A stretch of DNA of 59,948 nt, filler included. It is 7 parts of 7 records of this genome, joined end to end, with 100 filler letters (N's around TTAATTAATTAA, not from the genome) between each part and the next. Parts side by side here need not be neighbours in the genome. Positions count along the whole stretch, not along the records: positions 5,945 to 16,083 come from SRR31156797_15137; 6 more parts are not named here. One strand, given 5' to 3'. Within the stretch, counting starts at the first letter, position 1. The number at the start of each line of letters is the position of its first letter. Made by a program: the position numbers and the translations under genes. This document shows, piece by piece, positions 1,313-52,721 of the stretch. The notes below the pieces were generated by a model, which saw only the letters and a program-made list of their open reading frames with translations, was not told the DNA's origin and made no database searches.

Positions 1313-4300
1313 GTGAACACGATGACAGATGAAATCGACAAAAAAAAAGTTCGTATCCAAAAGATCAAAAAGTACAGCCTGATTGTTGCCGGATTCTTTC
1401 TGGTCTATGTGATCCTGGGTTTCTGGGTCATTCCGCCACTAGTGAAACCCAGGGTAGAAGAGCAGTTGTCCAACCTGCTCGGCCGTAAGGTCACCATCGA
1501 AAAGATGCAGCTCAATCCCCTCCTTCTCACCTCAACAACATCCAATCTTACGATTTATGAAACGGATGGTGAACCCTTCGCCGGGTTTGAAGAACTCTTC
1601 GCTGATGCCCAGTTGTCATCGATTTTCAGGTGGGCCATGACCGTTCGGGAGATCCGTGTGTTAAAACCTTTCGGGGTGCTGAAAATCTTTCCCGGTAACC
1701 AGCTGAACATCAGTGATATTCTGGCAAAACTGAGCGAACCCAGTGCCGAGCCAAAGGAAAAGGAGGAGGAGAAAGGAGGATTACCGCGCGCCGTGATCGA
1801 ACGTTTTCAGGTTGTAGACGGCAATGTGGCGATCGAGGACCATTTGGTAGAGGAGCCGATCATCGAAATTTTTTCCCCGATCACCTTCGAACTTACCAAT
1901 CTGAGCACCCTCAAGGAGCGGGAGGGCGATTATCAATTTGTGGGTATCGGGCCCTTGGGGGGGGAATTTGAAATGAATGGGAAGATCAGCGTCAATCCCG
2001 CACGGATCCAGGGACGCTTCCTCACAAAAGGAGCTCAACTCAACCATATTTGGGAGCATATCGAAGAACAGGTCTCCTTTCAATTCATAGAAGGTACCGT
2101 CGAACTGTCCGCTGATTACGCCATGACGCTTCTCGACGGACAACTGAAGGCCAAGGTGGAAAATGCCACCTTTGATTTGACCGACTTCAAATTGGTGGAA
2201 AAGGGCAAAGAAGAGGTGCTGATCGCATTGCCCACCTTGTCTGTTCAGGATGTCAGTGCCGATTTGAATACCCAGGAGATCATTGTCGGCCAGGTCCGAA
2301 CGGCCGACGCAGTCATCAAATCATGGTTTTCTGCAGATGGATCCACGGAGCTACAGCGCCTGTTTCAACCCGACATTGAAAAATTGATGGCAATGAAGGC
2401 CTCCTATGCGCCTGAGGCGGATGCGGAGCCCGGCCAACCCTGGTATGCAACACTTCAATCCCTGGAGGTAAAGGACTGGCGCCTGGTTCTTGATGATTTG
2501 ACGGGAGAAGCGCCCCTGCGCGAAACCTTTACCCTGGATTCTTTTACGGTGGAAAATGTGAGTACGAAAAAGGACGCTCAGGGCGACTATTCGTTCAGCG
2601 CGACCGGACCCAGTGGGGGACACTATCAGCTGGGCGGTCAACTGAGTGTCGACCCGGTGTGGACGCAGGGACGTTATTCTGTCTCGGATGTTCAACTGGC
2701 GCATTTTTGGGAACACGTCAAAGCGCATCTGTCTGTTCAGATCTCTAAGGGGGCCACAGGCGCCTCCGGCGACTATACGCTTGCGTTGAACGGAGGGATG
2801 ATCAACGCCCGGTTGGAGAACGGAAAAGTCGAACTCCATCAGTTCGAATTGGTGGAAAAGGGCAAAACCGAGGTCCTGATTTCAATACCGACCTTGACCG
2901 CCGAGGAGATCGGAGGCGATCTGCAAGCCCGAGAAATCCGTGTCGGGAAAGTTCAGACGGCGGACGGGTTAATCAAATCCTGGCTCTCCTCCAATGGAAC
3001 CTTCGAGCTGCAGAATCTTCTTCTCGGAGACCTTGAAAAATTTAAAGCACAGCAGGCCGACGGTGAAACAGAACCCGAGTCGGCTCCTTCTGAACCCTGG
3101 CAGTTGCTGCTCAAGAAAATGGAGGTTGACAATTGGGGCGCTGTTTTTGAAGATCGGACCCTTGCAAAGCCGGCCAAAATGTCTGTTGATCAGCTCAAGG
3201 TGGCGCTGGAAAATTTCTCCAATGAAAAAGAGAGCCAGGGGAAAGTGAATGTCACCATGCAGATCAACCGATCGGGGACCGTCACCGTAAATGGGAGTGC
3301 CGGTATTAATCCAATCCAGGCCGATATGAAGGTGTCCACCACAAAAATCGCATTAAAACCGTTCCAGCCTTATGTCGACGATGCGGTGAAGGCCCAGATT
3401 TATAAGGGATCCACGAGTTCCAGCGGTCGTGTACGCTACCAACAGAAGGATACGGGGAAATCCCAAATTCGATACCAGGGCGAGGTCAGTGTCGACGATG
3501 TCGAGATCCAGGATTCGTCGAATACCAAAGACTTCATCACCCTGGCTCAATTCAAGGCCAGCGGGATCGCGCTGGGCCTCAAACCCAACAAGCTCTACAC
3601 GGCCGATGTCCTCGTCGATCGACCCCACGCCAGGGTGACCATCGACCAGAATGGTATGATCAATGTGGTCAACGCCTTTTCTCCCGCAAAAAAGAACGAG
3701 GAGGGAAAAAAGGGTGCAGAGGAAGAACAAAATTTGTTGCAGCGCCTGGTCAGTTTTTTGATCCTTCAGTTCAAAGGCCCCATGCCCTTGCAGGTGGATC
3801 GGGTTCAACTCGCGAACTTCACAGCAGACTTTGTGGATGCTTCCATTTCTCCCAACTTTAGCACGCATCTCGAAATCAAAGAGGGGAGCTTCAAAGGCCT
3901 CTCCTCCGATCCCTCTGCCAAGGCCGATTTCAAGATGGAGGGCAGCATCGACAAAACGGCCCCGATTCAAGCCAGCGGACAGATGAATCCGATGAATGCG
4001 CTAAAATACAGCCGGGTGAATTTTACAGTAAAGGATTTTCAATTACCACCGACCTCTCCCTACTCGGGCAAGTTTATCGGTTATGAAATTGGCAGGGGAA
4101 GCCTGCACACGAATCTCAAATACAAGGTGCAAGATGATAAGGTGTACGGCGACAACATCATTCGTATCGACCAGTTGGAACTGGGCGAGAGCGTGGACAG
4201 CCCCGATGCCATCAATCTGCCCATCAAGCTCGGTATTGCGCTACTAAAAGACAGCGAAGGACGCATTTCGGTTCAGGTCCCGGTAGAAGGAGATGTCAGA

Positions 4301-4840
4301 GATCCACAATTTGACATCGGGGCTACCATTACGAGTGCCTTGACCGGAACCGTCAAAAATGCCGGTGAAGATCCCTTTTCCACCATCATGGACATCGACG
4401 GATTCACGGGGGATGAACTGCGTGCCATCTCATTCGATTTTGGCTCCTCCGAACCCGAAGAGCGCGAGATCCGGAAAATGCAGGCACTGGCTAAATTCTT
4501 GAAAGAGAGACCGTCCCTGTCCTTGGAGATCCTTGGGACAGCTGATCGGAAAATGGATGCCCTCGGGCTTGCAGGGGAACTGAGCGATCAAGATTCAAAA
4601 GAAGAACCGATTTCACCTGAAGAAGAAGCAAAAAAGAAGGAAAAGGACGCTGCAGTTGTTGAATCGTTCGATGTCGGGAAGTTGGAGCAACTCGCAAAAG
4701 AGCGCTCCGAAATCGTGCGCACCTACCTGGTTGAAAAGGCCATGCTGGATGCCGGGCGAATAGGAGCCAAACCCATCGAGATCAACGACGGGGAAGAATC
4801 TGGAAGCGGCCTTGTAGAAATGTCATTGTCCGCAAAATAG
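1313..4840 (+). CDS. DUF748-domain (AsmA-like) envelope protein with OmpA-like C-terminal region
   Basis: N-terminal TM anchor, repeated beta-rich units, SPYSGKFIGYEIGRG, LPIKLGIALLKD..G.I...VPV.GD..DPQF, and a C-terminal LEQLAKERSEIVRTYL. Confidence 0.85.
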   Translation: MNTMTDEIDKKKVRIQKIKKYSLIVAGFFLVYVILGFWVIPPLVKPRVEEQLSNLLGRKVTIEKMQLNPLLLTSTTSNLTIYETDGEPFAGFEELFADAQLSSIFRWAMTVREIRVLKPFGVLKIFPGNQLNISDILAKLSEPSAEPKEKEEEKGGLPRAVIERFQVVDGNVAIEDHLVEEPIIEIFSPITFELTNLSTLKEREGDYQFVGIGPLGGEFEMNGKISVNPARIQGRFLTKGAQLNHIWEHIEEQVSFQFIEGTVELSADYAMTLLDGQLKAKVENATFDLTDFKLVEKGKEEVLIALPTLSVQDVSADLNTQEIIVGQVRTADAVIKSWFSADGSTELQRLFQPDIEKLMAMKASYAPEADAEPGQPWYATLQSLEVKDWRLVLDDLTGEAPLRETFTLDSFTVENVSTKKDAQGDYSFSATGPSGGHYQLGGQLSVDPVWTQGRYSVSDVQLAHFWEHVKAHLSVQISKGATGASGDYTLALNGGMINARLENGKVELHQFELVEKGKTEVLISIPTLTAEEIGGDLQAREIRVGKVQTADGLIKSWLSSNGTFELQNLLLGDLEKFKAQQADGETEPESAPSEPWQLLLKKMEVDNWGAVFEDRTLAKPAKMSVDQLKVALENFSNEKESQGKVNVTMQINRSGTVTVNGSAGINPIQADMKVSTTKIALKPFQPYVDDAVKAQIYKGSTSSSGRVRYQQKDTGKSQIRYQGEVSVDDVEIQDSSNTKDFITLAQFKASGIALGLKPNKLYTADVLVDRPHARVTIDQNGMINVVNAFSPAKKNEEGKKGAEEEQNLLQRLVSFLILQFKGPMPLQVDRVQLANFTADFVDASISPNFSTHLEIKEGSFKGLSSDPSAKADFKMEGSIDKTAPIQASGQMNPMNALKYSRVNFTVKDFQLPPTSPYSGKFIGYEIGRGSLHTNLKYKVQDDKVYGDNIIRIDQLELGESVDSPDAINLPIKLGIALLKDSEGRISVQVPVEGDVRDPQFDIGATITSALTGTVKNAGEDPFSTIMDIDGFTGDELRAISFDFGSSEPEEREIRKMQALAKFLKERPSLSLEILGTADRKMDALGLAGELSDQDSKEEPISPEEEAKKKEKDAAVVESFDVGKLEQLAKERSEIVRTYLVEKAMLDAGRIGAKPIEINDGEESGSGLVEMSLSAK

Positions 4841-5844: not shown

Positions 5845-5943
5845 NNNNNNNNNNNNNNNNNNNNNNNNNNNNNNNNNNNNNNNNNNNNTTAATTAATTAA
5901 NNNNNNNNNNNNNNNNNNNNNNNNNNNNNNNNNNNNNNNNNNN
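5845..5943. other. Artificial contig linker
   Basis: N-run + TTAATTAATTAA + N-run. Confidence 0.99.
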
Positions 5944-5945
5944 NG

Positions 5946-5972
5946 CCGTAGGTTCGAGTCCTACCCCTGCTA
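5946..5972 (+). tRNA. tRNA 3' fragment (T-arm and acceptor strand); isotype undetermined
   Basis: GTAGG-TTCGAGT-CCTAC T-arm followed by CCCTGCT-A. Anticodon arm is missing at the contig edge. Confidence 0.75.
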
Positions 5973-5980
5973 AAGATACA

Positions 5981-6012
5981 CAGGATCGCAGAAATGCGAT
6001 CCTGTTTTGTTT
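5981..6012 (+). terminator. Intrinsic terminator after the tRNA
   Basis: Perfect stem CAGGATCGCA-GAAA-TGCGATCCTG followed by TTTTGTTT. Confidence 0.85.
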
Positions 6013-6031
6013 ATAAGCTAAAAGCTGTAAG

Positions 6032-7018
6032 ATGCAGAGACCCATGTACAAGCAAATCGACGATAATCTATTTGAGATCCACACGCCCATGCTGGATGAT
6101 CCCAGGATCACCGTGAAATCCTTTGTCATCAGAGATGAAAAACATCCCCTGATCATCGATACGGGTTATAACGATCCCGAGAGCCGCAGGCTTTTCCTGA
6201 ACGCCCTGAGGGAGCTGGAGATAGACCTCTCCCGGGCCCGTCTGGTGCTGACCCATCTCCATCCGGACCATACCGGACTGGCCGTCGACCTTGAAAGAGA
6301 GGGCTGCTCCGTCTACTACGGCAGGAAGGAGAGCCGCTATTTCGAGCGTCTGAACAGCCCGGGCTACGGCAGATTTGTGGAACTCAAATACAGGATGTAC
6401 GGTCTCCAGTGGGACACGGTCGCCCCCGCCGATTATCCGAGCCTGAAGTACAGAACGGCGAACGACTTCTCCTATCGGACAATCAATCCCGGCGAGAGCC
6501 TTGACGCCGATGGAGACAGCCTGGAGATCATCGCCCTGCCCGGCCATACCCCCGGTCACATCGGACTCTACGACGGGAAGAGGAAGCGCCTTTTCAGCGG
6601 CGACCATGTCCTGGAGAGGATCACCCCCAACGTGGACTACTGGGACTCGGATTTCAAGGTGATCAGAAGCTACAGGAAGAGCCTGAGGGCCGTGATGGAG
6701 CTCAATCCCTCCCTCACCCTGACCGCCCACGGCGATAACCTGAAGGAGCTCGGAGGACCGGCGCAGACCATACTGGACAGGCAGGACGCGCGCATCGCCG
6801 AGATCATGCAGCTGGTGCGCGGCGGACATGAGACGGTCCGCGCCATCGCCTCCCATATGGGCTGGACCAGAAAGTTCGACGGCTGGGACGGCTTCCCGGC
6901 CAAGCACAAATGGATGGCCTGCAATCAGATCATGGCCTTTGTCAGCTATATGAGCGAGAGAAAGCTCCTGCGCAAGGAGATGAGGAAGGGAGTGCTTTTC
7001 TTCAGTCCCGATGAGTAA
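6032..7018 (+). CDS. MBL-fold metallo-hydrolase
   Basis: THLHPDH (HxHxDH), PGHTPGH, LFSGDHVL, and a C-terminal winged-helix-like tail. Confidence 0.9.
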   Translation: MQRPMYKQIDDNLFEIHTPMLDDPRITVKSFVIRDEKHPLIIDTGYNDPESRRLFLNALRELEIDLSRARLVLTHLHPDHTGLAVDLEREGCSVYYGRKESRYFERLNSPGYGRFVELKYRMYGLQWDTVAPADYPSLKYRTANDFSYRTINPGESLDADGDSLEIIALPGHTPGHIGLYDGKRKRLFSGDHVLERITPNVDYWDSDFKVIRSYRKSLRAVMELNPSLTLTAHGDNLKELGGPAQTILDRQDARIAEIMQLVRGGHETVRAIASHMGWTRKFDGWDGFPAKHKWMACNQIMAFVSYMSERKLLRKEMRKGVLFFSPDE

Positions 7019-7045
7019 GGAAGGACAGGGGGGGCTACCCCTTCC

Positions 7046-7738
7046 TTATTCGGCCCTGCGGTTTTTCAGATTGTAGCGCTGCTCCACCAGCCTGTGCAGC
7101 CAGGAGGACAACGGGGGGAAGACCTTTGCCACCTCCCCCCGCCGGGGGATCATAAAGAAGTGGGCCTGGTCGGGCATCAGGGCGATATGCCTTATGACTC
7201 CGGGATCTTCCAGCTGCCCGATCACCCCGATCAGCTCCTTTTTCACATCCTCCCTCTCATAGTAGAGCCGGTAGCGGTAGTTGCCCCAGTCCAGTGTTTC
7301 CTGTTTCAGTTTGTCGGCATGACTGATCTTCGGTCCCCGGAAGGCGGAGAACTTCTCCTCGATGAGATGGCCCTCCCCCATAAGGTTCTCCGCCTTTTTG
7401 GAGTAGATCATGGTGACGAACAGACGGTCGAAGCGGCGGATCATCCTGGAAAAGGGATAGTAGAGCCATGACTGCCGGGGCAGGAGGGTTATGGTCGCCT
7501 CCACATGATGGATGAAGCGGTTCTTGTGGGGGACCATATGGGCATGATAACCCGTCAGGCCGCCGATGTTGGTGAAGCGCTGACCCTTGGGCTTCAGGGC
7601 CTCGACCAAAGCGTTGAAGGCGCTCAGGTATATCTTGTTGTTACGCCTTCTTCCCCAGGTATATCCGAGGGACAGGAGTACGGTGGCGGCGATGAAGAGA
7701 TAAAACAGGGGCTGCTGTGCGATATCGGAGTTCTGCAT
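7046..7738 (-). CDS. N-terminally membrane-anchored hypothetical protein, CCDC47/DUF1682-like
   Basis: One TM helix followed by YTWGRRRNNKI, then TITLLPRQSWL...MIRRFDRLFVTM. Starts 10 nt after the ArsA stop. The homology is a visual inference. Confidence 0.6.
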   Translation of the reverse strand: MQNSDIAQQPLFYLFIAATVLLSLGYTWGRRRNNKIYLSAFNALVEALKPKGQRFTNIGGLTGYHAHMVPHKNRFIHHVEATITLLPRQSWLYYPFSRMIRRFDRLFVTMIYSKKAENLMGEGHLIEEKFSAFRGPKISHADKLKQETLDWGNYRYRLYYEREDVKKELIGVIGQLEDPGVIRHIALMPDQAHFFMIPRRGEVAKVFPPLSSWLHRLVEQRYNLKNRRAE

Positions 7739-7748
7739 GCAATGTTCC

Positions 7749-8669
7749 TTACAGATTCTGGGTTAAGTCGCTGTCCATAATATAACAGGTCGGTTCCTCA
7801 TGGTCGATGACGGGAACCCTCTGCAGGGCGATCCCCCTATGGCCGGCCAGCAGCTCCTTCTCAACCGTTCCGGCGGTCTCTTCGTTCTGTAGGCTGACCT
7901 TGTTGTCGAAGACCACGCGCAGGGGCAGGTCCAGTTCCAGGATTCCCTCGAAGAGCCTCTGAGACTCCCTCAGGCTCAGGCGGTCCGGATTGAACACGAC
8001 GGCGATTCTGTTCTCATCGCTCTGTAGCAGCTCTCTGACCTGCTCGTAACGGGAGCGCATCTCGATCAGCTTCTTCATCACAGGATCGTCCTTTTCCAGA
8101 TAGGGGACGGTGAACTGCTCTTCGTCGAATTTACCGGTGATATTGTGAACAGTATGACGCTTGTCCAGGATCTCCCGCCTTATGGCCGAAAGCCGGTCGA
8201 TCCAGCTGACCGTGATGGAGGGAAGGGCCAGGATCCTCAGGGTCAGGCCCGTCGGAGGGGTATCGAAGACGATGTAGTCGAAGCTATCCCGCTCCCTGCG
8301 GAGAATGGTCTCCATGCTGGTCAGAGCCGCGTACTCCTCCACTCCGGGAGAGTACTTGAGCACCTTGAAGTAGCGGTCCATATTGAAAGCCCTGGTATAG
8401 CTGTAGACCTCCTGCATCAGATCCATGCTGTGGTCCAGATACTCCTGGGCGGATTTTTCAAGATCCGTTTCCTGAAGATAGAGATTCGTTTTCTGAAATC
8501 GTTTTTTCTTGTGTCCCAGTTTGACATGGAAGATATCGCCCAGATTATGGGCGGGATCGAAGGAGACGGCGAGGACCCGCATCCCCTTCTCCGCCAGCTG
8601 CCAGGCGACGGCCGCGCTCAGGGTGGACTTTCCCACGCCCCCTTTACCGGTAAAAAAAAGTGTCTTCAT
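7749..8669 (-). CDS. ArsA/Get3-family ATPase, single domain
   Basis: Deviant Walker A GKGGVGKS, switch I SFDPAHNLGD, PGVEE, switch II DTPPTG. Confidence 0.92.
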   Translation of the reverse strand: MKTLFFTGKGGVGKSTLSAAVAWQLAEKGMRVLAVSFDPAHNLGDIFHVKLGHKKKRFQKTNLYLQETDLEKSAQEYLDHSMDLMQEVYSYTRAFNMDRYFKVLKYSPGVEEYAALTSMETILRRERDSFDYIVFDTPPTGLTLRILALPSITVSWIDRLSAIRREILDKRHTVHNITGKFDEEQFTVPYLEKDDPVMKKLIEMRSRYEQVRELLQSDENRIAVVFNPDRLSLRESQRLFEGILELDLPLRVVFDNKVSLQNEETAGTVEKELLAGHRGIALQRVPVIDHEEPTCYIMDSDLTQNL

Positions 8670-8680
8670 AGTACTCCGCT

Positions 8681-8986
8681 TCAGTCGACATCGAGGATGG
8701 AGATGATTTCCGCAAAGGAATCGGAAGCCCGCATGGCCCGGGAATTGAGAACCCTGATCTCATGCTCCAGATGGGGAAGCAGCTCCGCCGATATAAAGGA
8801 CGGCGGAGAGGGCATTCCGGAAAAGGAGCCCATCAGAAGCAGGACGAAGAGGTTTTCCAGTTCCCTTATCTCGAACTCGGTCACATCCGTGACCTGCTTC
8901 CGGTGGCTCTCATCCAGGGTGGAGAAAAAAGCCTTCAGTCCCTTTAGCAGTTTCGGCCCGTCAGGCCTTTTTTCTCCGTCGGCCAT
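8681..8986 (-). CDS. Small (101 aa) CstA-associated protein
   Basis: ATG at 8986, 2 nt after the cstA stop. Core ELENLFVLLLMGSFSGMPSPP...ELLPHL. The longer track ORF overlaps cstA and is unlikely. Confidence 0.8.
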   Translation of the reverse strand: MADGEKRPDGPKLLKGLKAFFSTLDESHRKQVTDVTEFEIRELENLFVLLLMGSFSGMPSPPSFISAELLPHLEHEIRVLNSRAMRASDSFAEIISILDVD

Positions 8987-8988
8987 GA

Positions 8989-10695
8989 TCAGGCCTCTTT
9001 CTTGGATTTGAAAAAGTCGATGATGAATACGAAGTTCATGATGAGCATGATCACTTCGATAACCAGTACGGTGATTCCGGTGGACGGATTGGCCTTGATG
9101 GTACCGGGCAGAACCACGGCGCTGAACCATATGATGGCCGCCGAAACGGTGATCCACAAGAGGTATGCGGGGATCAGGGCCATATTGACGTTCTTCACCT
9201 TCATCCTCTTGGCCAGCCAGGCGCTGCCCGTCAGCATGGCGATGGACGCGATCAGCTGGTTTGCCGAACCGAAGGAGGGCCAGAGCACCGTGAAGCTCCC
9301 GGACCAGGCCAGGTACATGCCGATGGCGGCGGGGATAACCGAAGCGATCCAGCTGTTGGTCAGGAGCTTATAGGCCCCTGCGTTCTTCTCTTTCAGGGGA
9401 AGGGCAAGCTCCATAACGGTGTAGCGTCCCAGGCGGTTTGTGGTATCCAGGGTGGTCATGGCGAAGGAAGAGACCCACATACCGGCGATCAGAACGACGA
9501 TGTTCCTGGGAATGAAGCTGAGCCATGTGGTCTCGACCATGGCGGCATAGGCGTTGGTGAACATGGCCGCTTTGGGGAAGCTTCCCATCATGGCGGGGGT
9601 GTACTCGCTGGCCCAGCCTGCGACGGAAATGGTCTGTCCCGCATCCTTGAGCAGTTCCATACCGAAACCGGCGATGGAAACGACCACCAGGGTGGACAGG
9701 AAACCTTCGGTCAGCATGGAGCCGTAACCGATGGGGAGGGCATCGCTCTCCTTCTCAAGCTGCTTGCTGCTGGTGCCCGATCCCACGAGGGCGTGGAAGC
9801 CGGAGAGGGAACCGCAGGCGATGATCAGGGGGATGGCCGGCCAGAAGGGGGTCGGCTTTCCGCCGGAGATGATGGGGGCGAAGCTTGTGAAGGCGGGGGC
9901 GGAGAATCCGTGGAAACTGAAGATCCCCGCGATCGCGCCGATAAACAGTCCGAAGTAGAGGAGCCAGCTGTTCAGGTAGTCCCGGGGCTGGAGCAGAACG
10001 TCAACCGGAATGGCCGACGCTATGATGATGTAGAAGAACATGACCAGGAACCAGACGTTCTTGCTGGCGGCGATGGGGAAGAGGCTTCCCAGCCAGATGG
10101 CGAGGCAGAGCAGGACGATCCCGATGACCGTGGACAGGACGAAGTTGAGCTTGACCCTGTACATCAGAACGCCCAGGATAACGGCGGCCACCAGCATCAG
10201 GATGAAGGCGGTGGGGATGGAGCCGTTGCTGATGAACATGCCCCCCAGAACGGCGCCGAAGGCGGCTATGACCAGGATGAGCAGAAAGAACACCAGCCAG
10301 TAGAAGAGCTGGCCCGTCCGCTTGGTGATCACATCGGATGCGACGAACTGAATGGAGCGGCCGTCGTAGCGGACCGAAGCCATGAGGGCCAGGTAATCGT
10401 GGACCGCGCCGATGAAGATGTTGCCGAACCAGACCCACAGAAGCGCGGGAACCCAGCCCCAGGCCATGGCCAGAACAGGACCGATGATAGGGGCGGCACC
10501 TGCGATGGATGCGAAGTGATGTCCGAAAAGTACCGGCGCTTTGGCGGGAACATAGTCAACACCGTCGTAGAGCTTCTTTGACGGAGCGTCGTTATCGTCC
10601 GTGGCCTGAACAAGATTCTTCTCAAGCCTCTTACCGTAGGTAAGGTAAAGGACGACATAGACGGCGATTCCCACAGCCAACACAATAGTAGTCAT
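8989..10695 (-). CDS. cstA: Carbon starvation protein A family transporter
   Basis: DGVDYVPA..PVLFGHHFASIAGAAPIIGP, GAVHDY, LLQPRDY, IACGSLSGFH, TTLDT, LWPSFGSANQ. AAGGAGG RBS. Confidence 0.95.
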   Translation of the reverse strand: MTTIVLAVGIAVYVVLYLTYGKRLEKNLVQATDDNDAPSKKLYDGVDYVPAKAPVLFGHHFASIAGAAPIIGPVLAMAWGWVPALLWVWFGNIFIGAVHDYLALMASVRYDGRSIQFVASDVITKRTGQLFYWLVFFLLILVIAAFGAVLGGMFISNGSIPTAFILMLVAAVILGVLMYRVKLNFVLSTVIGIVLLCLAIWLGSLFPIAASKNVWFLVMFFYIIIASAIPVDVLLQPRDYLNSWLLYFGLFIGAIAGIFSFHGFSAPAFTSFAPIISGGKPTPFWPAIPLIIACGSLSGFHALVGSGTSSKQLEKESDALPIGYGSMLTEGFLSTLVVVSIAGFGMELLKDAGQTISVAGWASEYTPAMMGSFPKAAMFTNAYAAMVETTWLSFIPRNIVVLIAGMWVSSFAMTTLDTTNRLGRYTVMELALPLKEKNAGAYKLLTNSWIASVIPAAIGMYLAWSGSFTVLWPSFGSANQLIASIAMLTGSAWLAKRMKVKNVNMALIPAYLLWITVSAAIIWFSAVVLPGTIKANPSTGITVLVIEVIMLIMNFVFIIDFFKSKKEA

Positions 10696-10815
10696 GAATA
10701 GCCTCCTTATGATTTACAGTAATTGTCAGATAAGTAAACGGATACGTCAAGGAGTTTATTATTAGTACTTTTCCTGTCAGGTTTTATTGAAATCGGGGCC
10801 GTCGCTGAAAATCGG

Positions 10816-11103
10816 TCAGCCAGGCTGCTCTGGCAGGATCTCTACATTGAAACCGGGAAACGACAGCCCCAGCGCCGCCTTCAGATCACGGCAGATGCCC
10901 TTCTCTATGACCAGGGATATCCCCGCGCAGGTCAGGCAGCCCGGGCGATGGGAACCGAAGTCGGTAAAGACGTAGATGTTCTTCCCCTCTTCATCGTAGC
11001 GGAAGCGCTTCACGACTCCGAGGCCCGAAAGAGGGAGAGCGCTCTCGGGATCCTTCACATCTTCCAGTACCCTGTCGAAGCGCTCTTTCACATCCTTCTC
11101 CAT
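10816..11103 (-). CDS. DUF59/MIP18-like (FeS-assembly-type) small protein with CxxC
   Basis: VLEDVKDPES.L.LSGLGVV matches the DUF59 V.DPE...I..LG.V motif. PGCLTC. ATG at 11103 follows a GGGAGG RBS. Confidence 0.7.
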   Translation of the reverse strand: MEKDVKERFDRVLEDVKDPESALPLSGLGVVKRFRYDEEGKNIYVFTDFGSHRPGCLTCAGISLVIEKGICRDLKAALGLSFPGFNVEILPEQPG

Positions 11104-11321
11104 ATCGTCCTCCCTATCCGCGGCCAAGGCTCCGCAGGAACTTCAGTGGTTTTCTCTCATAGGCCGGAGGGCCTGTATCGACTATAATCCCCCCCGTTGC
11201 AAAATGACAGGCTCCGCCCCCCCATAAACCAAGAAAACCCGTCCTCCGGAGAAGACGGGCTTCGCTGCGTTCATACCGCGCCGTCCCCGCGACGGGGCGG
11301 CGCCCTCATTTCATTTTCGAG

Positions 11322-12641
11322 TCAGCCGGCCTGCTCGGCCTTGATTCCGGGTTTGGCCCAGACGGCCATATCCAGCTCATTCTCCCCCTTGGAGACGAGA
11401 ACGGTACCGAGGAGGTCGCCTGTCACATTGGTAGCGGTCCTGCCCATGTCCAGAAGGGCGTCGATCCCCAGGATCATGGCGTAAGCGGCGGCCACGGCGG
11501 AACCGGCCTCGATGGTGATTCCGATGGAGTTGAGAACCATCAGAAGCATGATGGCTCCGGCTCCGGGGATGCCTGCGGAACCGATGGAAGCCAGAACGGC
11601 GGTCAGGATGATGTTGAACTGCTGCGCCACGGTTAGCTCTATCCCCACCGCATTGGTGATGAACAGGGCGCATACGCCCATGTAGATCGCCGTACCGTCC
11701 ATATTGATGGTGGCGCCGAGGGGCAGTGTAAAGGATGAGACTTTCTTGGGAACGCCCAGATTCTCAGTGGCGTTCCGCATGGTAACAGGCAGGGTGCCGC
11801 TGGAAGAACGGGTTACGAAGGCGGTGATCATCGCTTCCCTGGAACCCGAGAAGAACTTCAGGAAGCCCAGCTTGTTAACGGCCAGGAACACCCCGTAGAC
11901 CACGACGATCTGAAGGATGAATCCGAAGTAGGATGTCAGGGTCACGAGTCCGAGGGAACCGAAGGCCCTGGCTCCCTGCTTTCCGAAAACGACGGCGATC
12001 AGGGCGAACACGCCGATGGGAGCGTACTCCAGGATCCAGCGGACGATGACGTACATGACCTCGGCGGCGCCGTCGAAGATGTTGAACAGGGACTCCCCCG
12101 CCTTGCTGATCCTCTGGTCATCCGAATTGCGGACGGTCGAGATGCCGATGCCGAAGACCAGGGCGAAGAAGATAATGGGCAGGACCTGGCCCTTGGACAG
12201 GGCGCCGAAGGGATTCTTGGGAATGACGGCCAACAGGGTTTCGATGAACCGGGGCTGGCTCAGCTCCTTTCCGGCGGCATCGGCGGAAGCGGCCAGCTGC
12301 AGGCCGGCGCCGGGATGGAAGATATTGGCGGCCAAAAGACCGACCGTCACGGCCAGGGCGGAGGTCACCATGTAGAAGATGAAAACGCGCACACCTATCT
12401 TACCCAGTTCCTTGGGCTGAATACTGGCGGCTCCCACGACCAGGGAGGTCAGAATCAGGGGCATCACGATCATCTTGAGCAGATTGACCAGCAGGCTGCC
12501 CAGGGGCTGAACAACGGCGATAGAGGGACCGACGATGATACCGGCCACCGCGCCGATGATCAGACCGGTGAGAATCCGCAGCAGCAGATTCGTTTGAAAA
12601 TACCAGGAAAACAGTCCTCTTTTTTTTGAAGAATCACTCAC
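11322..12641 (-). CDS. Dicarboxylate/amino acid:cation symporter (GltP/GltPh family)
   Basis: AFVTRSSSGTLP, LPLGATINMDGT, IDALLDMGRTATNVTGD. Probable GTG start at 12641. Confidence 0.93.
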   Translation of the reverse strand: MSDSSKKRGLFSWYFQTNLLLRILTGLIIGAVAGIIVGPSIAVVQPLGSLLVNLLKMIVMPLILTSLVVGAASIQPKELGKIGVRVFIFYMVTSALAVTVGLLAANIFHPGAGLQLAASADAAGKELSQPRFIETLLAVIPKNPFGALSKGQVLPIIFFALVFGIGISTVRNSDDQRISKAGESLFNIFDGAAEVMYVIVRWILEYAPIGVFALIAVVFGKQGARAFGSLGLVTLTSYFGFILQIVVVYGVFLAVNKLGFLKFFSGSREAMITAFVTRSSSGTLPVTMRNATENLGVPKKVSSFTLPLGATINMDGTAIYMGVCALFITNAVGIELTVAQQFNIILTAVLASIGSAGIPGAGAIMLLMVLNSIGITIEAGSAVAAAYAMILGIDALLDMGRTATNVTGDLLGTVLVSKGENELDMAVWAKPGIKAEQAG

Positions 12642-12794
12642 AATACCTTTCCTCCGGGATGTAAAACAGATCACCCATTCTCGAATTGATGACTTGTCAC
12701 ACTGATTTTGATTGAATAATGCTAGGTTATTCTAATCTTTATTTAATGAATCCCGGATTAAGAATTCTTAACATAAGGAAAAATACGGGCCCCT

Positions 12795-13538
12795 TCAGAC
12801 CATATGGAGCCTGATCCCCCGGGCCGTCAGTTTCTCGCGAAAGGCCTCGGGAACGCCCTCATCCGTCACGATCCGGCCTATCCGGGAGAGAGGGGCGAAA
12901 CTGCGCAATCCCTTTTGCCCGAACTTGCTCGAATCGGAGAGCAGCACCAGCTCATCCGCCGCCTCGGCGATCAGGGACATGACCTCGGTCCTGTCTATGT
13001 CACGCCCCATGGCCCCCTCCTCAAGGGTGAAGCCGTCCATGCCCAGGAAGGCTTTGCTGAAGTTATAGTATTTGAGATAGGCCCCTATCATGGGCCCCAC
13101 CATGGTCTCGCTGTTCTTTTGAAACTCCCCGCCCAGGAGGATCACCCGCACCCCCGGGGCGTCCCGGAACTGACGGGCCACGAAGGCGTTGTTGGTCAGC
13201 ACATTGAGACGCCGGAAGCCGCAGAGCTCCCGGGCCGCCAGGGCGATGCAGGATCCGGCTTCCAGGAATAGGGTCTCCCCCTCCCGTACGAGGGATGCCG
13301 CTTCCCGCCCGATCCTCTGCTTCTCGGCAAAGCGTATCCCCATGCGCCGGGCTATGTCGTCCTCTGAGCGAAGGGTAGCCCCGCCGCGGGTCCTGAGGAG
13401 CAGCCCCTCCTCTTCCAGCAGCCTCAGGTCGCTGCGTATGGTGACAAGGGAAACCCTCAGCTTTTCCGATAACTCCTGAACGCTGGCCTCTTTCCCGCTG
13501 CTGATGAACTTCAATATCTCTTCATGTCTCTGATTCAT
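12795..13538 (-). CDS. yciT: DeoR-family regulator, YciT-like
   Basis: DeoR HTH VSLVTIRSDL..LE..G.L.R.RGGA plus DeoRC domain. Divergent from ybiY/ybiW-like genes. Confidence 0.8.
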   Translation of the reverse strand: MNQRHEEILKFISSGKEASVQELSEKLRVSLVTIRSDLRLLEEEGLLLRTRGGATLRSEDDIARRMGIRFAEKQRIGREAASLVREGETLFLEAGSCIALAARELCGFRRLNVLTNNAFVARQFRDAPGVRVILLGGEFQKNSETMVGPMIGAYLKYYNFSKAFLGMDGFTLEEGAMGRDIDRTEVMSLIAEAADELVLLSDSSKFGQKGLRSFAPLSRIGRIVTDEGVPEAFREKLTARGIRLHMV

Positions 13539-13580
13539 ATCCCGACCATTATGATCCATAATCCGCAGAATATCCACCTT

Positions 13581-13617
13581 TTTTCGTTTGAAAGCTATTT
13601 GACTTTCGTTTGCAAAG
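13581..13617. promoter_or_regulatory. Two tandem TTTCGTTTG(C)AAAG boxes, putative DeoR/YciT operator overlapping a TTGACT -35
   Basis: TTTCGTTTG at 13582 and 13604, 22 bp apart. Each box approximates CTTTC-N4-GAAAG. Confidence 0.55.
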
Positions 13618-13634
13618 CATGATACCCTGAGTTA

Positions 13635-14480
13635 ATGGAAGCCATGATCTTCGATATACAGCGTTTTTCCCTTCATGACGGAAGCGGACTGAGAACGACC
13701 GTCTTCTTCAAGGGCTGCCCCCTGACCTGCCTCTGGTGCGCCAATCCGGAGGGACAGAAACGCCGGCCCCAGCTTATGAAGAACGAGTCACTCTGCATGG
13801 ACTGCGGAGACTGCAGGGGCTGCGGGGACGCAGAGTCTCTGGGGCGGATCTGCCCCACGGGAGCTCTCACCGTCACAGGGCGTAGAATAGGCAGCGCAGA
13901 CCTGCTGCGGGAACTCCTGAAGGACGAGGTCTTTTTCCGAAGCTCCGGCGGGGGCGTCTGCTTCTCGGGGGGCGAGCCCCTGACCCAGGCCCCCTTCTGC
14001 GCCGAGCTGGGAAGCATGCTGAAAGAGAAGGATATCCCCGTTTCGCTGGAAAGTTGCCTCCACGTCCCCTGGTCATCGGTGGAGAAGGTCATCCCTCTGG
14101 TGGACGAGTTCTTCTGCGACCTGAAACACGGTGATCCCCTGGTCTTCCGGGAGCAGACGGGCGGGGACCTCTCCCTGATTCTGGATAACCTGAGACGGCT
14201 CGACGCCCTGAGCGTTCCCGTCCGTATCCGCATCCCCGTGATCTACGGATTCAACCACAGCGAAGCGGAAATCCGCTCCATCATGAAGATCCTGAAGCCG
14301 CTCAAGCATATAAAGGGGGTGGACCTGATGCCCTACCATCCCCTGGGCGCAGGGAAGCACCAGTCCCTGAATATGAGCTACCATCTTCCCCTTAACGCCA
14401 TGCCCCCCGAAGAGCTGGCTCCCTACAGAGAGCTGGCCGAGAGCTTTGATCATACCGTCACCATAGGAGGACTGACATGA
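13635..14480 (+). CDS. Glycyl-radical enzyme activating enzyme (radical SAM), YbiY/PflE-like
   Basis: IQRFSLHDG.G.RTTVFFKGCPLTCLWCANPE, a short ferredoxin-like insert, SGGEP. Confidence 0.93.
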   Translation: MEAMIFDIQRFSLHDGSGLRTTVFFKGCPLTCLWCANPEGQKRRPQLMKNESLCMDCGDCRGCGDAESLGRICPTGALTVTGRRIGSADLLRELLKDEVFFRSSGGGVCFSGGEPLTQAPFCAELGSMLKEKDIPVSLESCLHVPWSSVEKVIPLVDEFFCDLKHGDPLVFREQTGGDLSLILDNLRRLDALSVPVRIRIPVIYGFNHSEAEIRSIMKILKPLKHIKGVDLMPYHPLGAGKHQSLNMSYHLPLNAMPPEELAPYRELAESFDHTVTIGGLT

Positions 14481-16083
14481 ACCAGCGCATCGCCGACTAC
14501 AAGAAGAGAATACTCGCCACCACCCCCACCATCTGCACCGAGAGGGCCCGTTTCTATACGGAGGCCTATAAGAGACACAGAAACAAGCCGGTCATCCTCA
14601 AGAGGGCCTATGCCCTGAAGGACACCCTGGAAAAGATGAGCATCCGCATTGAGCCGGAGGAGCTGATTGTGGGTAACCACTCATCCGCCGTCTACGCCGC
14701 TCCCGTCTTCCCTGAATACGCGGTGGAATGGATCGCCAGGGAGATCGATGAGTTCGAGAAGCGGCCCGCCGACGACTATCATCCCGATGACGAGACCAAG
14801 AAAGAACTGTTGGAGATCTGCTCCTGGTGGGAGGGGGTCACGACCCTGGACAAGGGACGGGCCCTGATGAGCGAAGAGCTGCTGGCCATTCACGAGGCCG
14901 GGATCATCCGGGCCGAGGGAAACCTGACATCCGGCGACGCCCATATAGCCGCCCACTTCCCCAAGATCCTGAAGAACGGGCTTCCCTGGTACATAGACCA
15001 TACGAAGGAGCTTCTGGACAGATGCGACCTGGGCCGGGAGGAGGGCATCAAAAAGTCCAAATATTACGAAGCCACGGTCATCAGCCTGGAAGCCCTGCGG
15101 AACTTCATCCTCCGCTTCGCCGATCTGGCGGAGTTGATCCGGAAGAGCGGCGACAATCCGGAAAGGGCCGCAGAGCTTGGCCGCATCGCCGCGAACTGCC
15201 GGGCCCTTGCCGACGCCCCGGCAAGCGGATTCTACGAAGCCCTGCAGATGAGCTACTTCCTCCAGCTGACCCTGCAGATTGAGAGCAACGGCCACTCCCT
15301 CTCCCTGGGGCGGATGGACCAGTACCTCTACCCCTTCTATAAGGAGGACAAAGACGCGGGAAGGATAGAAGACGACTTCGTTATGGAGCTCCTGGAGCAT
15401 ACATGGCTCAAGCTGGTCAGCATCAAGAAGATACGATCCTGGTCCCATACCCGCTTCTCGGCGGGAGGGCCTCTCTACCAGAACGTGACCATCGGCGGAC
15501 AGCTGCGGGACGGTTCGGACGCGGTCAACGATCTGAGCTTTCTGATCCTGAGGTCGGTGGGAGAGACCAGGCTGACCCAGCCCAACCTGACGGTCCGATT
15601 CCATCCCGGATTGAACGATGCCTTTCTGGCCGAATGCATCGAGGTGATCCGCCTGGGCTTCGGCATGCCCGCCTTCAATAACGACTCCATCGTCATACCG
15701 GCCTTCCATGAGCTGGGAGTGGAGGAAGAGGACGCCTGGGACTATTCGGCCATAGGCTGTATCGAGGTCGCCGTCCCTGGATTCTGGGGCTACCGCTGTA
15801 CGGGCAAGCACTTCCTGAACTTTATGCGGGTCTTTATGGCCGCCCTCTATGACGGCACCGATCCGGTGAGCGGCAAACAGTTCTGCAAGGGTACGGGCAG
15901 CCTGAGCGATTTCACGGCCTACGAGGACCTGTGGAAGGCCTGGGACAAGCAGGTCAGATTCTATGCCAAAGCGGGTGTCTCCATAGACGCGGCCATCGAC
16001 ATGGTCCTCAGGGACGAGGCGCCGGACATCCTCTGCTCCGCCTTTACCGAGCCCTGCCTGGAGCGGGGCATGACCATCCATGA
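14477..16083 (+). CDS. ybiW: Glycyl-radical enzyme, YbiW/PflF type (3'-truncated)
   Basis: CTERA..YTE, AEGNLTSGDAH, QIESNGHSLSLGR.DQYLYP, and single-Cys loop AIGCIEVAVPG.WGYRCTG, as recalled for E. coli YbiW. Confidence 0.82.
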
Positions 16084-16183
16084 NNNNNNNNNNNNNNNNN
16101 NNNNNNNNNNNNNNNNNNNNNNNNNNNTTAATTAATTAANNNNNNNNNNNNNNNNNNNNNNNNNNNNNNNNNNNNNNNNNNNN
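16084..16183. other. Artificial contig linker
   Basis: N-run + TTAATTAATTAA + N-run. Confidence 0.99.
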
Positions 16184-25218: not shown

Positions 25219-25318
25219 NNNNNNNNNNNNNNNNNNNNNNNNNNNNNNNNNNNNNNNNNNNNTTAATTAATTAANNNNNNNNNNNNNNNNNNNNNNNNNN
25301 NNNNNNNNNNNNNNNNNN
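25219..25318. other. Artificial contig linker
   Basis: N-run + TTAATTAATTAA + N-run. Confidence 0.99.
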
Positions 25319-32743: not shown

Positions 32744-32843
32744 NNNNNNNNNNNNNNNNNNNNNNNNNNNNNNNNNNNNNNNNNNNNTTAATTAATTAAN
32801 NNNNNNNNNNNNNNNNNNNNNNNNNNNNNNNNNNNNNNNNNNN
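32744..32843. other. Artificial contig linker
   Basis: N-run + TTAATTAATTAA + N-run. Confidence 0.99.
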
Positions 32844-39091: not shown

Positions 39092-39191
39092 NNNNNNNNN
39101 NNNNNNNNNNNNNNNNNNNNNNNNNNNNNNNNNNNTTAATTAATTAANNNNNNNNNNNNNNNNNNNNNNNNNNNNNNNNNNNNNNNNNNNN
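39092..39191. other. Artificial contig linker
   Basis: N-run + TTAATTAATTAA + N-run. Confidence 0.99.
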
Positions 39192-52621: not shown

Positions 52622-52721
52622 NNNNNNNNNNNNNNNNNNNNNNNNNNNNNNNNNNNNNNNNNNNNTTAATTAATTAANNNNNNNNNNNNNNNNNNNNNNN
52701 NNNNNNNNNNNNNNNNNNNNN
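52622..52721. other. Artificial contig linker
   Basis: N-run + TTAATTAATTAA + N-run. Confidence 0.99.

Follow-up and report, generated by a model that had tools for sequence, protein, structure and literature searches.

A bacterial copy of the cstA-cstX-arsA homologue-cstY module, with a membrane-anchored CstY protein resembling CCDC47

Introduction

Why should a permease of the CstA family be encoded together with an ATPase of the Get3/ArsA family and a membrane-anchored protein that resembles CCDC47? The question is raised by a five-gene locus found in a stretch of DNA of 59,948 nucleotides (nt; hereafter, the window), which joins seven pieces with runs of N between them; the locus lies in the 10-kb, N-run-bounded piece at positions 5945-16083. 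Its genes all share the minus strand and are, from first to last:

10816-11127, minus strand: DUF59-like small protein, first gene; open reading frame (ORF) of 103 amino acids (aa) from a TTG at 11127
8989-10695, minus strand: CstA-family permease, 568 aa, PF02554
8681-8986, minus strand: CstX, 101 aa, with an ATG start inside the ORF 8681-9157
7749-8669, minus strand: single-domain ATPase of the Get3/ArsA family, 306 aa, PF02374
7046-7738, minus strand: CstY, membrane-anchored, 230 aa, characterised by an AlphaFold2 (AF2) model and a fold search

Only 2, 11 and 10 nt separate the last four genes, from cstA to cstY, and 120 nt lie between the first gene and cstA. The location and the three short gaps, re-derived here, agree with those of an earlier, model-made description of the locus (the first-pass annotation), which had reported five co-oriented genes between 7046 and 11103.

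Relatives of Get3/TRC40 and of CCDC47, two eukaryotic biogenesis factors, are thus brought together in one prokaryotic operon around a single multipass transporter. The module constitutes a small and genetically tractable system for the role of the CCDC47 fold without its ribosome-latch helices, and it also bears on the non-arsenic roles of ArsA/Get3 ATPases in prokaryotes and on the coupling of ATP to CstA-type carriers.

A complete copy of a published module

Every gene of the cstA-cstX-arsA homologue-cstY module is present at the locus, which is an ordinary bacterial copy of a known kind. Castillo and Saier (2010, Int J Microbiol, PMC2963123) described 26 associations of CstA with ArsA homologues, 24 of them with a CstX of ~90 aa, together with a single-helix CstY of ~210 aa in five archaea (5 of the 26 clusters). 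The accessible part of that paper reports the co-evolution of CstA, CstX, CstY and the ATPase, with no ars genes and no arsR, and proposes that CstA draws energy from the ATPase, to which CstX couples it, CstY being a possibly nonessential auxiliary (PMC2963123). The window presents the same parts, sizes and order, including a single-domain ArsA homologue (~300-330 aa there, 306 aa here). CstX was equated with the published protein by position and size, and CstY probably corresponds to its namesake. Two differences stand out: the published CstY was seen in only five archaea, as far as the accessible part of the source goes, whereas the present one is bacterial and belongs to a family with at least 188 species-representative matches; and neither CCDC47 nor a DUF59-like fifth gene is mentioned in that same part. 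The first-pass annotation had mentioned cstA-arsA neighbourhoods in other prokaryotes, which were indeed published in 2010, but its remark that no function is established for them needs amending, since an ATP-energised CstA had already been proposed there (PMC2963123).

Relatives of CstY number 331 at E <=1e-3 in a clustered database, and the family comprises 236 representatives at 50% identity; among the 120 matches listed, none carries a Pfam domain and the few that are named are all "hypothetical". The nearest relative comes from an Oceanispirochaeta metagenome-assembled genome (MAG; 80% identity), and further loci from Spirochaetota, Synergistota and Syntrophales-type MAGs. Gene order was surveyed in the best 80 of 188 species-representative stretches encoding a CstY relative. 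Wherever a locus offered enough DNA, the order CstA-CstX-ATPase-CstY on one strand was found, the ATPase adjoining in 78 of 78 loci, CstX in 75 of 76 and CstA in 65 of 65; the only miss of CstX (L056) arises because a truncated ATPase gene shifts the position. This arrangement is far from chance, and the co-occurrence of these genes across genomes, for which the first-pass annotation had asked a neighbourhood survey, is thereby shown for these closest loci. Moreover, the gaps between cstX and the ATPase gene are often of -1 to 12 nt, which suggests translational coupling, and so tight a coupling suggests in turn that the products are stoichiometric subunits. Distant members of the CstY family, 216-217 aa long, are named from Thermococcus and Crenarchaeota, and this connects the family with the CstY that the 2010 paper described from archaea. 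A tree of 104 members was poorly resolved and served only to choose such distant members.

The modularity of the system was followed in a sample of 301 Spirochaetota genomes, with 13 loci annotated by hidden Markov models (HMMs). The CstX model was found in 13 genomes and the CstY model in 17: both in 8, CstX only in 5 and CstY only in 9. Four to five of the CstX-only loci have CstA-CstX-ATPase without CstY; one CstX-only genome shows two tandem ATPases, one a broken CstA, and one a locus that reaches the contig end. Half of eight CstY-only loci (L082, L085, L087 and L088) show CstY divergent from an adjoining short CstA, both CstX and the ATPase being absent from the locus DNA, and can be described as a two-gene form of the module. 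The other half (L081, L083, L084 and L086; ~6000-11200) have CstY without CstA, CstX or ATPase at the locus; there, HPPK and a transglutaminase-like gene come before CstY, and a 205-aa gene, a McsB-like arginine kinase and ClpC follow just after it, a long CstA being encoded elsewhere in the genome. Altogether, CstY and CstX-ATPase are separable add-ons, each staying with CstA. Some loci depart from the common layout in other ways, with a tandem or second Get3/ArsA-type ATPase (L093:1882-3888; L023 and L037, ~1770-2700, minus strand), with two CstA copies (L073 and L076), or with a ClpC-like AAA+ gene convergent to a CstA-CstX-ATPase module without CstY (L090:2229-4544); the last is a second, independent Clp neighbour that may be a coincidence.

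The DUF59-like gene occurs in 27 of the 80 related loci, at three different positions, and is a facultative fifth member of the module. Within the 103-aa ORF of the window, an in-frame ATG at 11103 (95 aa) aligns with the starts of the orthologues (n = 24) and is probably the real start, judging from this alignment. The name DUF59-like, inherited from the first-pass annotation, is supported by the orthologues, 21 of 24 of which match PF01883 (DUF59/FeS_assembly_P; best E 3e-7); for the window's own copy no Pfam match, PF01883 included, was obtained. DPES, H60, P62, C64 and C67 are invariant in the 24-orthologue alignment, and the H-x-P-x-C-x-x-C so formed is a possible metal site. Fusions of DUF59 domains to Mrp/NBP35 P-loop ATPases, which belong to the same broad class, are frequent.

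The permease, the ATPase and CstX

The window CstA matches PF02554 in one continuous stretch (E 2e-124) and scores 180 bits against the NCBIfam model "pyruvate/proton symporter CstA", far under its cut-off of 1188. It is a short form, without the 115-aa loop insert of the stand-alone long forms. All accessory-linked CstA proteins tested (7/7) are likewise short forms with an unbroken Pfam match, and all stand-alone ones (3/3; 691-693 aa) carry the 115-aa hydrophilic insert after the equivalent of window residue 201. The insert was mapped against window 8989-10695 in the following long, stand-alone copies:

L094:471-2546, stand-alone long CstA
L095:430-2505, stand-alone long CstA
L096:331-2412, stand-alone long CstA

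The idea that CstX would replace this insert in trans was dropped, as the CstX and CstY HMMs both miss the insert.

The ATPase has an E of 5e-53 to PF02374 and, with 184 bits, clears the cut-off of 135 set for the broad TIGR00345 Get3/ArsA/TRC40 model, and it fails the equivalog models for ArsA (TIGR04291; 116 against 650 bits), BagA (54 against 400) and NosAFP (52 against 325). The nearest solved structures are algal ArsA1 (1e-38), archaeal Get3 (6e-34 for 3ug6, 5e-31 for 3zq6) and E. coli ArsA (4e-31), eukaryotic Get3 standing at about 1e-18 to 1e-21. Walker A (GKGGVGKS), switch I (DPAHN) and switch II (DTPPTG) are invariant among 52 sequences, and the enzyme is therefore probably active.

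As in the ArsA-ArsB pump, the gene of a SIMIBI ATPase from this family adjoins that of a permease of the secondary-carrier type, and that pump serves as the model for an ATPase docking on a carrier. However, ArsA is made of two homologous halves in a chain of ~580 aa, whereas the window ATPase is a single domain of 306 aa. Furthermore, ArsA has conserved metalloid-binding cysteines, and the window ATPase has none: its sole Cys, at residue 295 (the first-pass count of one is correct), is not conserved, no Cys occurs among the invariant or nearly invariant columns (n = 52), and there is no CXXC. Switch II also differs, reading DTPPTGLT with an invariant Leu where ArsA1, MjGet3, EcArsA and MtGet3 read DTAPTGHT, with His. 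Given the single domain, the lack of a conserved Cys and the absence of arsB, acr3, arsC, arsD and arsR among the genes of the piece 5945-16083, an arsenite pump is unlikely, as the first-pass annotation had argued from the single Cys and the same lack of ars genes nearby.

With Get3/TRC40, in turn, the ATPase shares the single domain, the deviant Walker A and an almost gap-free alignment of residues 2-259 to archaeal Get3. Get3/TRC40 is nevertheless a general factor, with a CXXC zinc-bridged dimer and a Met-rich hydrophobic client groove in the helical subdomain, whereas the window ATPase has no CXXC, a polar stretch where that groove would lie and a gene tied to a single transporter operon; a Get1/Get2-like receptor was not identified. 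The region in question, residues 150-206, is polar and conserved, with 39% charged residues and a median of 1 Met (range 0-3), where the aligned stretches of MjGet3 and MtGet3 hold 8 and 5 Met respectively, as counted by eye in the alignments. Such a Met-poor region would argue against a promiscuous, helix-shielding groove and in favour of a specific protein interface.

CstX is acidic (median isoelectric point, pI, of 4.9) and has no clear transmembrane segment, its top 19-residue hydropathy being 1.24. An invariant G-x-P-x-P-P turn was observed in the alignment of 53 orthologues, and AF2 models CstX alone, with low confidence (predicted local distance difference test, pLDDT, 62), as two helices at 10-56 and 63-97, so that the protein is predicted to be a two-helix hairpin around this turn. 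No Pfam family matched it, even at E 10; the NCBIfam model NF041419, "cory-CC-star", matched all 53 of the 53 orthologues, with a best E of 1.9e-7 and every score under the cut-off of 80.

A complex prediction with four chains, run without supplied alignments and with CstA left out, scored CstX against two copies of the ATPase together with the CstY domain. The ipSAE (interaction prediction score from aligned errors) was 0.34 (runs 0.34, 0.30 and 0.47), with the verdict "weak support", the best of three controls, including replacement of the ATPase, being 0.00. In the calibration, 51 of 78 solved complexes and 2 of 108 mismatches attained this mark, and passes at <=0.60 turn out wrong more often than right, except where the guess was likely beforehand. 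At least 52% of the contacts are shared between runs, and the pLDDT of the partner is at least 49. A contact of CstX with the ATPase thus finds weak support in the models; the multimer check that the first-pass annotation had suggested for the ATPase dimer with the 101-aa protein, the CCDC47-like protein and CstA yielded, for the first three, this score, which concerns CstX alone, and no interface.

CstY and its likeness to CCDC47

The AF2 model of CstY (pLDDT 91; predicted template modelling score, pTM, 0.84) presents a long N-terminal helix at 10-48, a beta-rich domain and a C-terminal helix at 203-229, close to the chain end at 230. The top 19-residue hydropathy window (1.67) begins at residue 6, which together with the modelled helix bears out the membrane anchor claimed in the first-pass annotation. 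CstY is basic, with a median pI of 9.6; its domain has a median pI of 9.4 and is basic in 86 of the 104 members.

A Foldseek search of the PDB returned 7tm3_4 (E 1.8e-9), 9i78_4 (E 4.3e-7) and 6w6l_7 (E 6e-3). With VIA-align, the best match was 7tm3_4/7tut_4 (Z 15.4, root-mean-square deviation 3.7, 208-209 residues; model residues 8-221 against chain residues 135-397), the second 9i78_4 (Z 14.2; chain residues 76-368) and the third had a Z of 11.0. According to the accessible parts of the sources, the three top-matching entries are ribosome-translocon structures with CCDC47 (PMC9816642, PMC7505659, PMC12572126), CCDC47 being contained in 7TM3 (PMC9816642). In C. thermophilum, the accessible text gives the "TMD and globular domain" body of CCDC47 as residues 76-370 (PMC12572126), and the aligned range 76-368 of 9i78_4 matches this body; the chain letters are inferred. 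When 48,161 representative chains were compared by VIA-align without bias, CCDC47 chains of two species ranked first and second, some 6 Z units over the rest (TtfA came next at Z 8.8, and the others were at <=7.0), and the match runs through the membrane helix and then the entire domain, with no change of order. The first-pass annotation had called the protein CCDC47-like from its sequence alone, and the fold search upholds that call.

At the sequence level, the link to CCDC47 is faint but specific. Sub-threshold, collinear matches to Pfam CCDC47 (E <=1) were found in 44 of 104 diverse CstY members, with no other family exceeding 5 of 104. At E <=0.005, the matches amount to 12 of 103 members, 6 of which run 90-140 profile positions past the helix and one of which lies wholly outside it. 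A protein atlas places CstY near a cluster of CCDC47 with a value of only 0.79, to be taken as a lead rather than as evidence. The lower fold matches of CstY include many type III secretion chaperones (Z 4.3-6.4), again a lead only.

Like CCDC47, the scaffold of the PAT complex (7TM3/7TUT, 6W6L, 9I78), CstY would have one membrane helix followed by a cytosolic alpha/beta domain, in the same orientation, with basic residues after the helix; sequence identity is 10-12%. Unlike CCDC47, it starts ~9 residues before the helix, and both the lumenal N-terminal domain and the C-terminal latch helices are absent. To our knowledge, there is no Asterix-like partner for CstY. The latch helices reach the ribosome tunnel and Sec61, according to the accessible text of the structural papers (PMC12572126, PMC7505659). 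CCDC47 is described as "conserved across eukaryotes" in a paper in whose accessible text the string "prokaryot" never occurs (PMC7505659), and our literature search, judged from titles and the starts of abstracts, found no link of CCDC47 to prokaryotic proteins, TtfA or DUF1682. Considering the whole of this evidence, CstY is very probably homologous to CCDC47, and this homology is the part of the analysis worth a bench test.

An ATP-coupled transporter or a biogenesis device?

What would such an assembly do? An ATP-coupled transporter complex fits best, and we consider the chances about even that the four core products form one membrane complex in which the ATPase energises CstA. CstA would be the permease; its characterised relatives are named pyruvate/proton symporter in NCBIfam. 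A homodimer of the ATPase would sit on the cytoplasmic face of CstA, held there via the acidic two-helix CstX, while CstY would be anchored beside CstA by its single helix, with its basic CCDC47-fold domain turned toward the cytoplasm. ATP binding and hydrolysis would then drive or gate transport, as ArsA makes a pump of the carrier ArsB. The physical contacts, the coupling between ATP and transport, and the substrate are what we infer in this scheme. Should the complex be only an energised or gated transporter, it would provide a new energy-coupling mode for the transporter classification (TC) family CstA, predicted in 2010.

Several points weigh against this proposal. The nearest structural relative of CstY is a membrane-protein biogenesis factor and not a transporter subunit, and the ATPase is closest to Get3-type targeting factors as well as to ArsA. 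Characterised CstA/BtsT relatives are proton symporters that need no ATPase. The complex prediction is weak, with no interface obtained, and the model of CstX is of low confidence. The perfect synteny partly reflects shared ancestry, because the survey covered the nearest 80 out of 188 hits. Finally, literature searches found neither later work on cstX or cstY nor experiments on any member of the module.

The first-pass annotation had offered two functions, a client-dedicated chaperone or insertion system for CstA and an ATP-energised CstA complex. The latter, which matches the 2010 proposal, is the one favoured here, and the former we regard as unlikely. According to the former, the module would serve biogenesis or quality control of CstA alone: the ATPase would hold hydrophobic segments of CstA or CstX, and CstY would assist the insertion or folding of CstA as CCDC47 does in the PAT complex. 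The match of CstY to the transmembrane and globular domains of CCDC47, together with the repeated Pfam matches, speaks for it, but CstY stops where the latch helices of CCDC47 would begin and has no lumenal domain. The basic domain of CstY resembles a ribosome- or RNA-binding surface, and, purely as a lead, type III secretion chaperones are found among its lower fold matches. The alignment of the ATPase with archaeal Get3 is nearly free of gaps, and yet the region in place of the groove is polar and Met-poor, and the enzyme has neither a CXXC zinc motif nor a conserved Cys. Four spirochaete loci have CstY just ahead of genes of protein quality control, namely McsB-like and ClpC; nonetheless, this adjacency comes from 4 probably related genomes and includes a 330-nt gap. 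Most clusters of CstA and the ATPase lack CstY (5 of 26 have it in the accessible part of PMC2963123, and it is missing from 5 CstX-only genomes), so that it is not an obligatory receptor of the ATPase. The behaviour of CstY and CstX-ATPase as separable add-ons of CstA, the tight translational coupling with the stoichiometric subunits that it suggests, and the existence elsewhere of a long-form CstA that needs no such partners likewise speak against a dedicated biogenesis device.

A more ambitious version of the biogenesis proposal would see in CstY a true prokaryotic "mini-CCDC47", reduced to the helix and the globular domain, present in bacteria and archaea and working with the Get3-like ATPase as a CstA-specific device for biogenesis or quality control. 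We hold this to be a little less probable still; if it were true, the PAT scaffold and Get3 targeting would share a pre-eukaryotic, transporter-bound forerunner.

A regulatory switch is also conceivable, although rather improbable: the ATPase dimer would sense the adenylate or energy state and, via CstX and CstY, open or close a proton-symporting CstA. It draws on the same linkage data as the ATP-coupled transporter, on the naming of CstA relatives as proton symporters and on the invariant Leu of switch II, in the place of the His of ArsA1, MjGet3, EcArsA and MtGet3, which hints at an altered transmission of the signal; however, gating and energising are not told apart by the present data, no sensor domain was found, and we know of no precedent for such a role in the Get3/ArsA family of ATPases.

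Finally, the likeness to CCDC47 might be a convergence on a common alpha/beta arrangement, in which case CstY would be an unrelated transporter accessory, comparable to TtfA. The profiles of the prokaryotic CstY family (A1 and A2) did not reach CCDC47 among PDB sequences, where GTPBP10 (E 1.1) and a designed protein (E 8) matched by chance, nor did they reach it among 7997 candidate proteins of 421-2000 aa at E <=0.01, which is weak evidence; no CCDC47-sized protein appeared in the best 150 of the 236 CstY representatives, nearly all of which are of 80-260 aa. Every match to Pfam CCDC47 (PF07946) stays under the gathering score of 27.7 bits, the window CstY scoring 12.5 and the best member 22.7. 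TtfA (6T84), the mycobacterial trehalose monomycolate transport factor, is likewise a membrane-anchored transporter accessory and shares the fold over 152 residues; its Z of 8.8 is barely over the background of 7-8, though, with 5% identity and no sequence similarity, and its partner is MmpL3, not CstA. Convergence is improbable when the two CCDC47 chains lead all others by so wide a distance with helix and domain in order, when CCDC47 is the only Pfam family matched repeatedly, and when, of the 12 stronger matches, half continue well beyond the membrane helix and one is located entirely outside it.

Expression signals and neighbouring genes

Contigs from three RNA libraries cover parts of all five genes at 90-99% likeness, and one of them, at 7579-7867, bridges the junction between the ATPase gene and cstY. 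As evidence for expression this is weak, since DNA can contaminate such libraries. Two further features, from a consensus scan only and not evidence of function, precede the module:

11263-11234, minus strand: terminator-like hairpin of the upstream symporter gene
11210-11181, minus strand: promoter-like site before the first gene of the module

The neighbours of the module encode a MBL-fold hydrolase, a GltP-type symporter, a DeoR regulator, a radical-SAM activase and a PFL-like enzyme. The last two, at window 13635-16080, form a pair of radical-SAM activase and PFL-like glycyl-radical enzyme, the latter cut by the end of the piece; the pair lies 2.5 kb from a transporter of a family named for pyruvate uptake.

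The pieces of the window meet at joints 5845-5944, 16084-16183, 25219-25318, 32744-32843, 39092-39191 and 52622-52721, which show paired 44-base runs of N. At the 16.1-kb joint G+C falls from ~0.58 to 0.42, and the pieces may be non-neighbours or come from different organisms. The first piece encodes a 1175-aa DUF748 protein (E 8e-239) at window 1313-4840.

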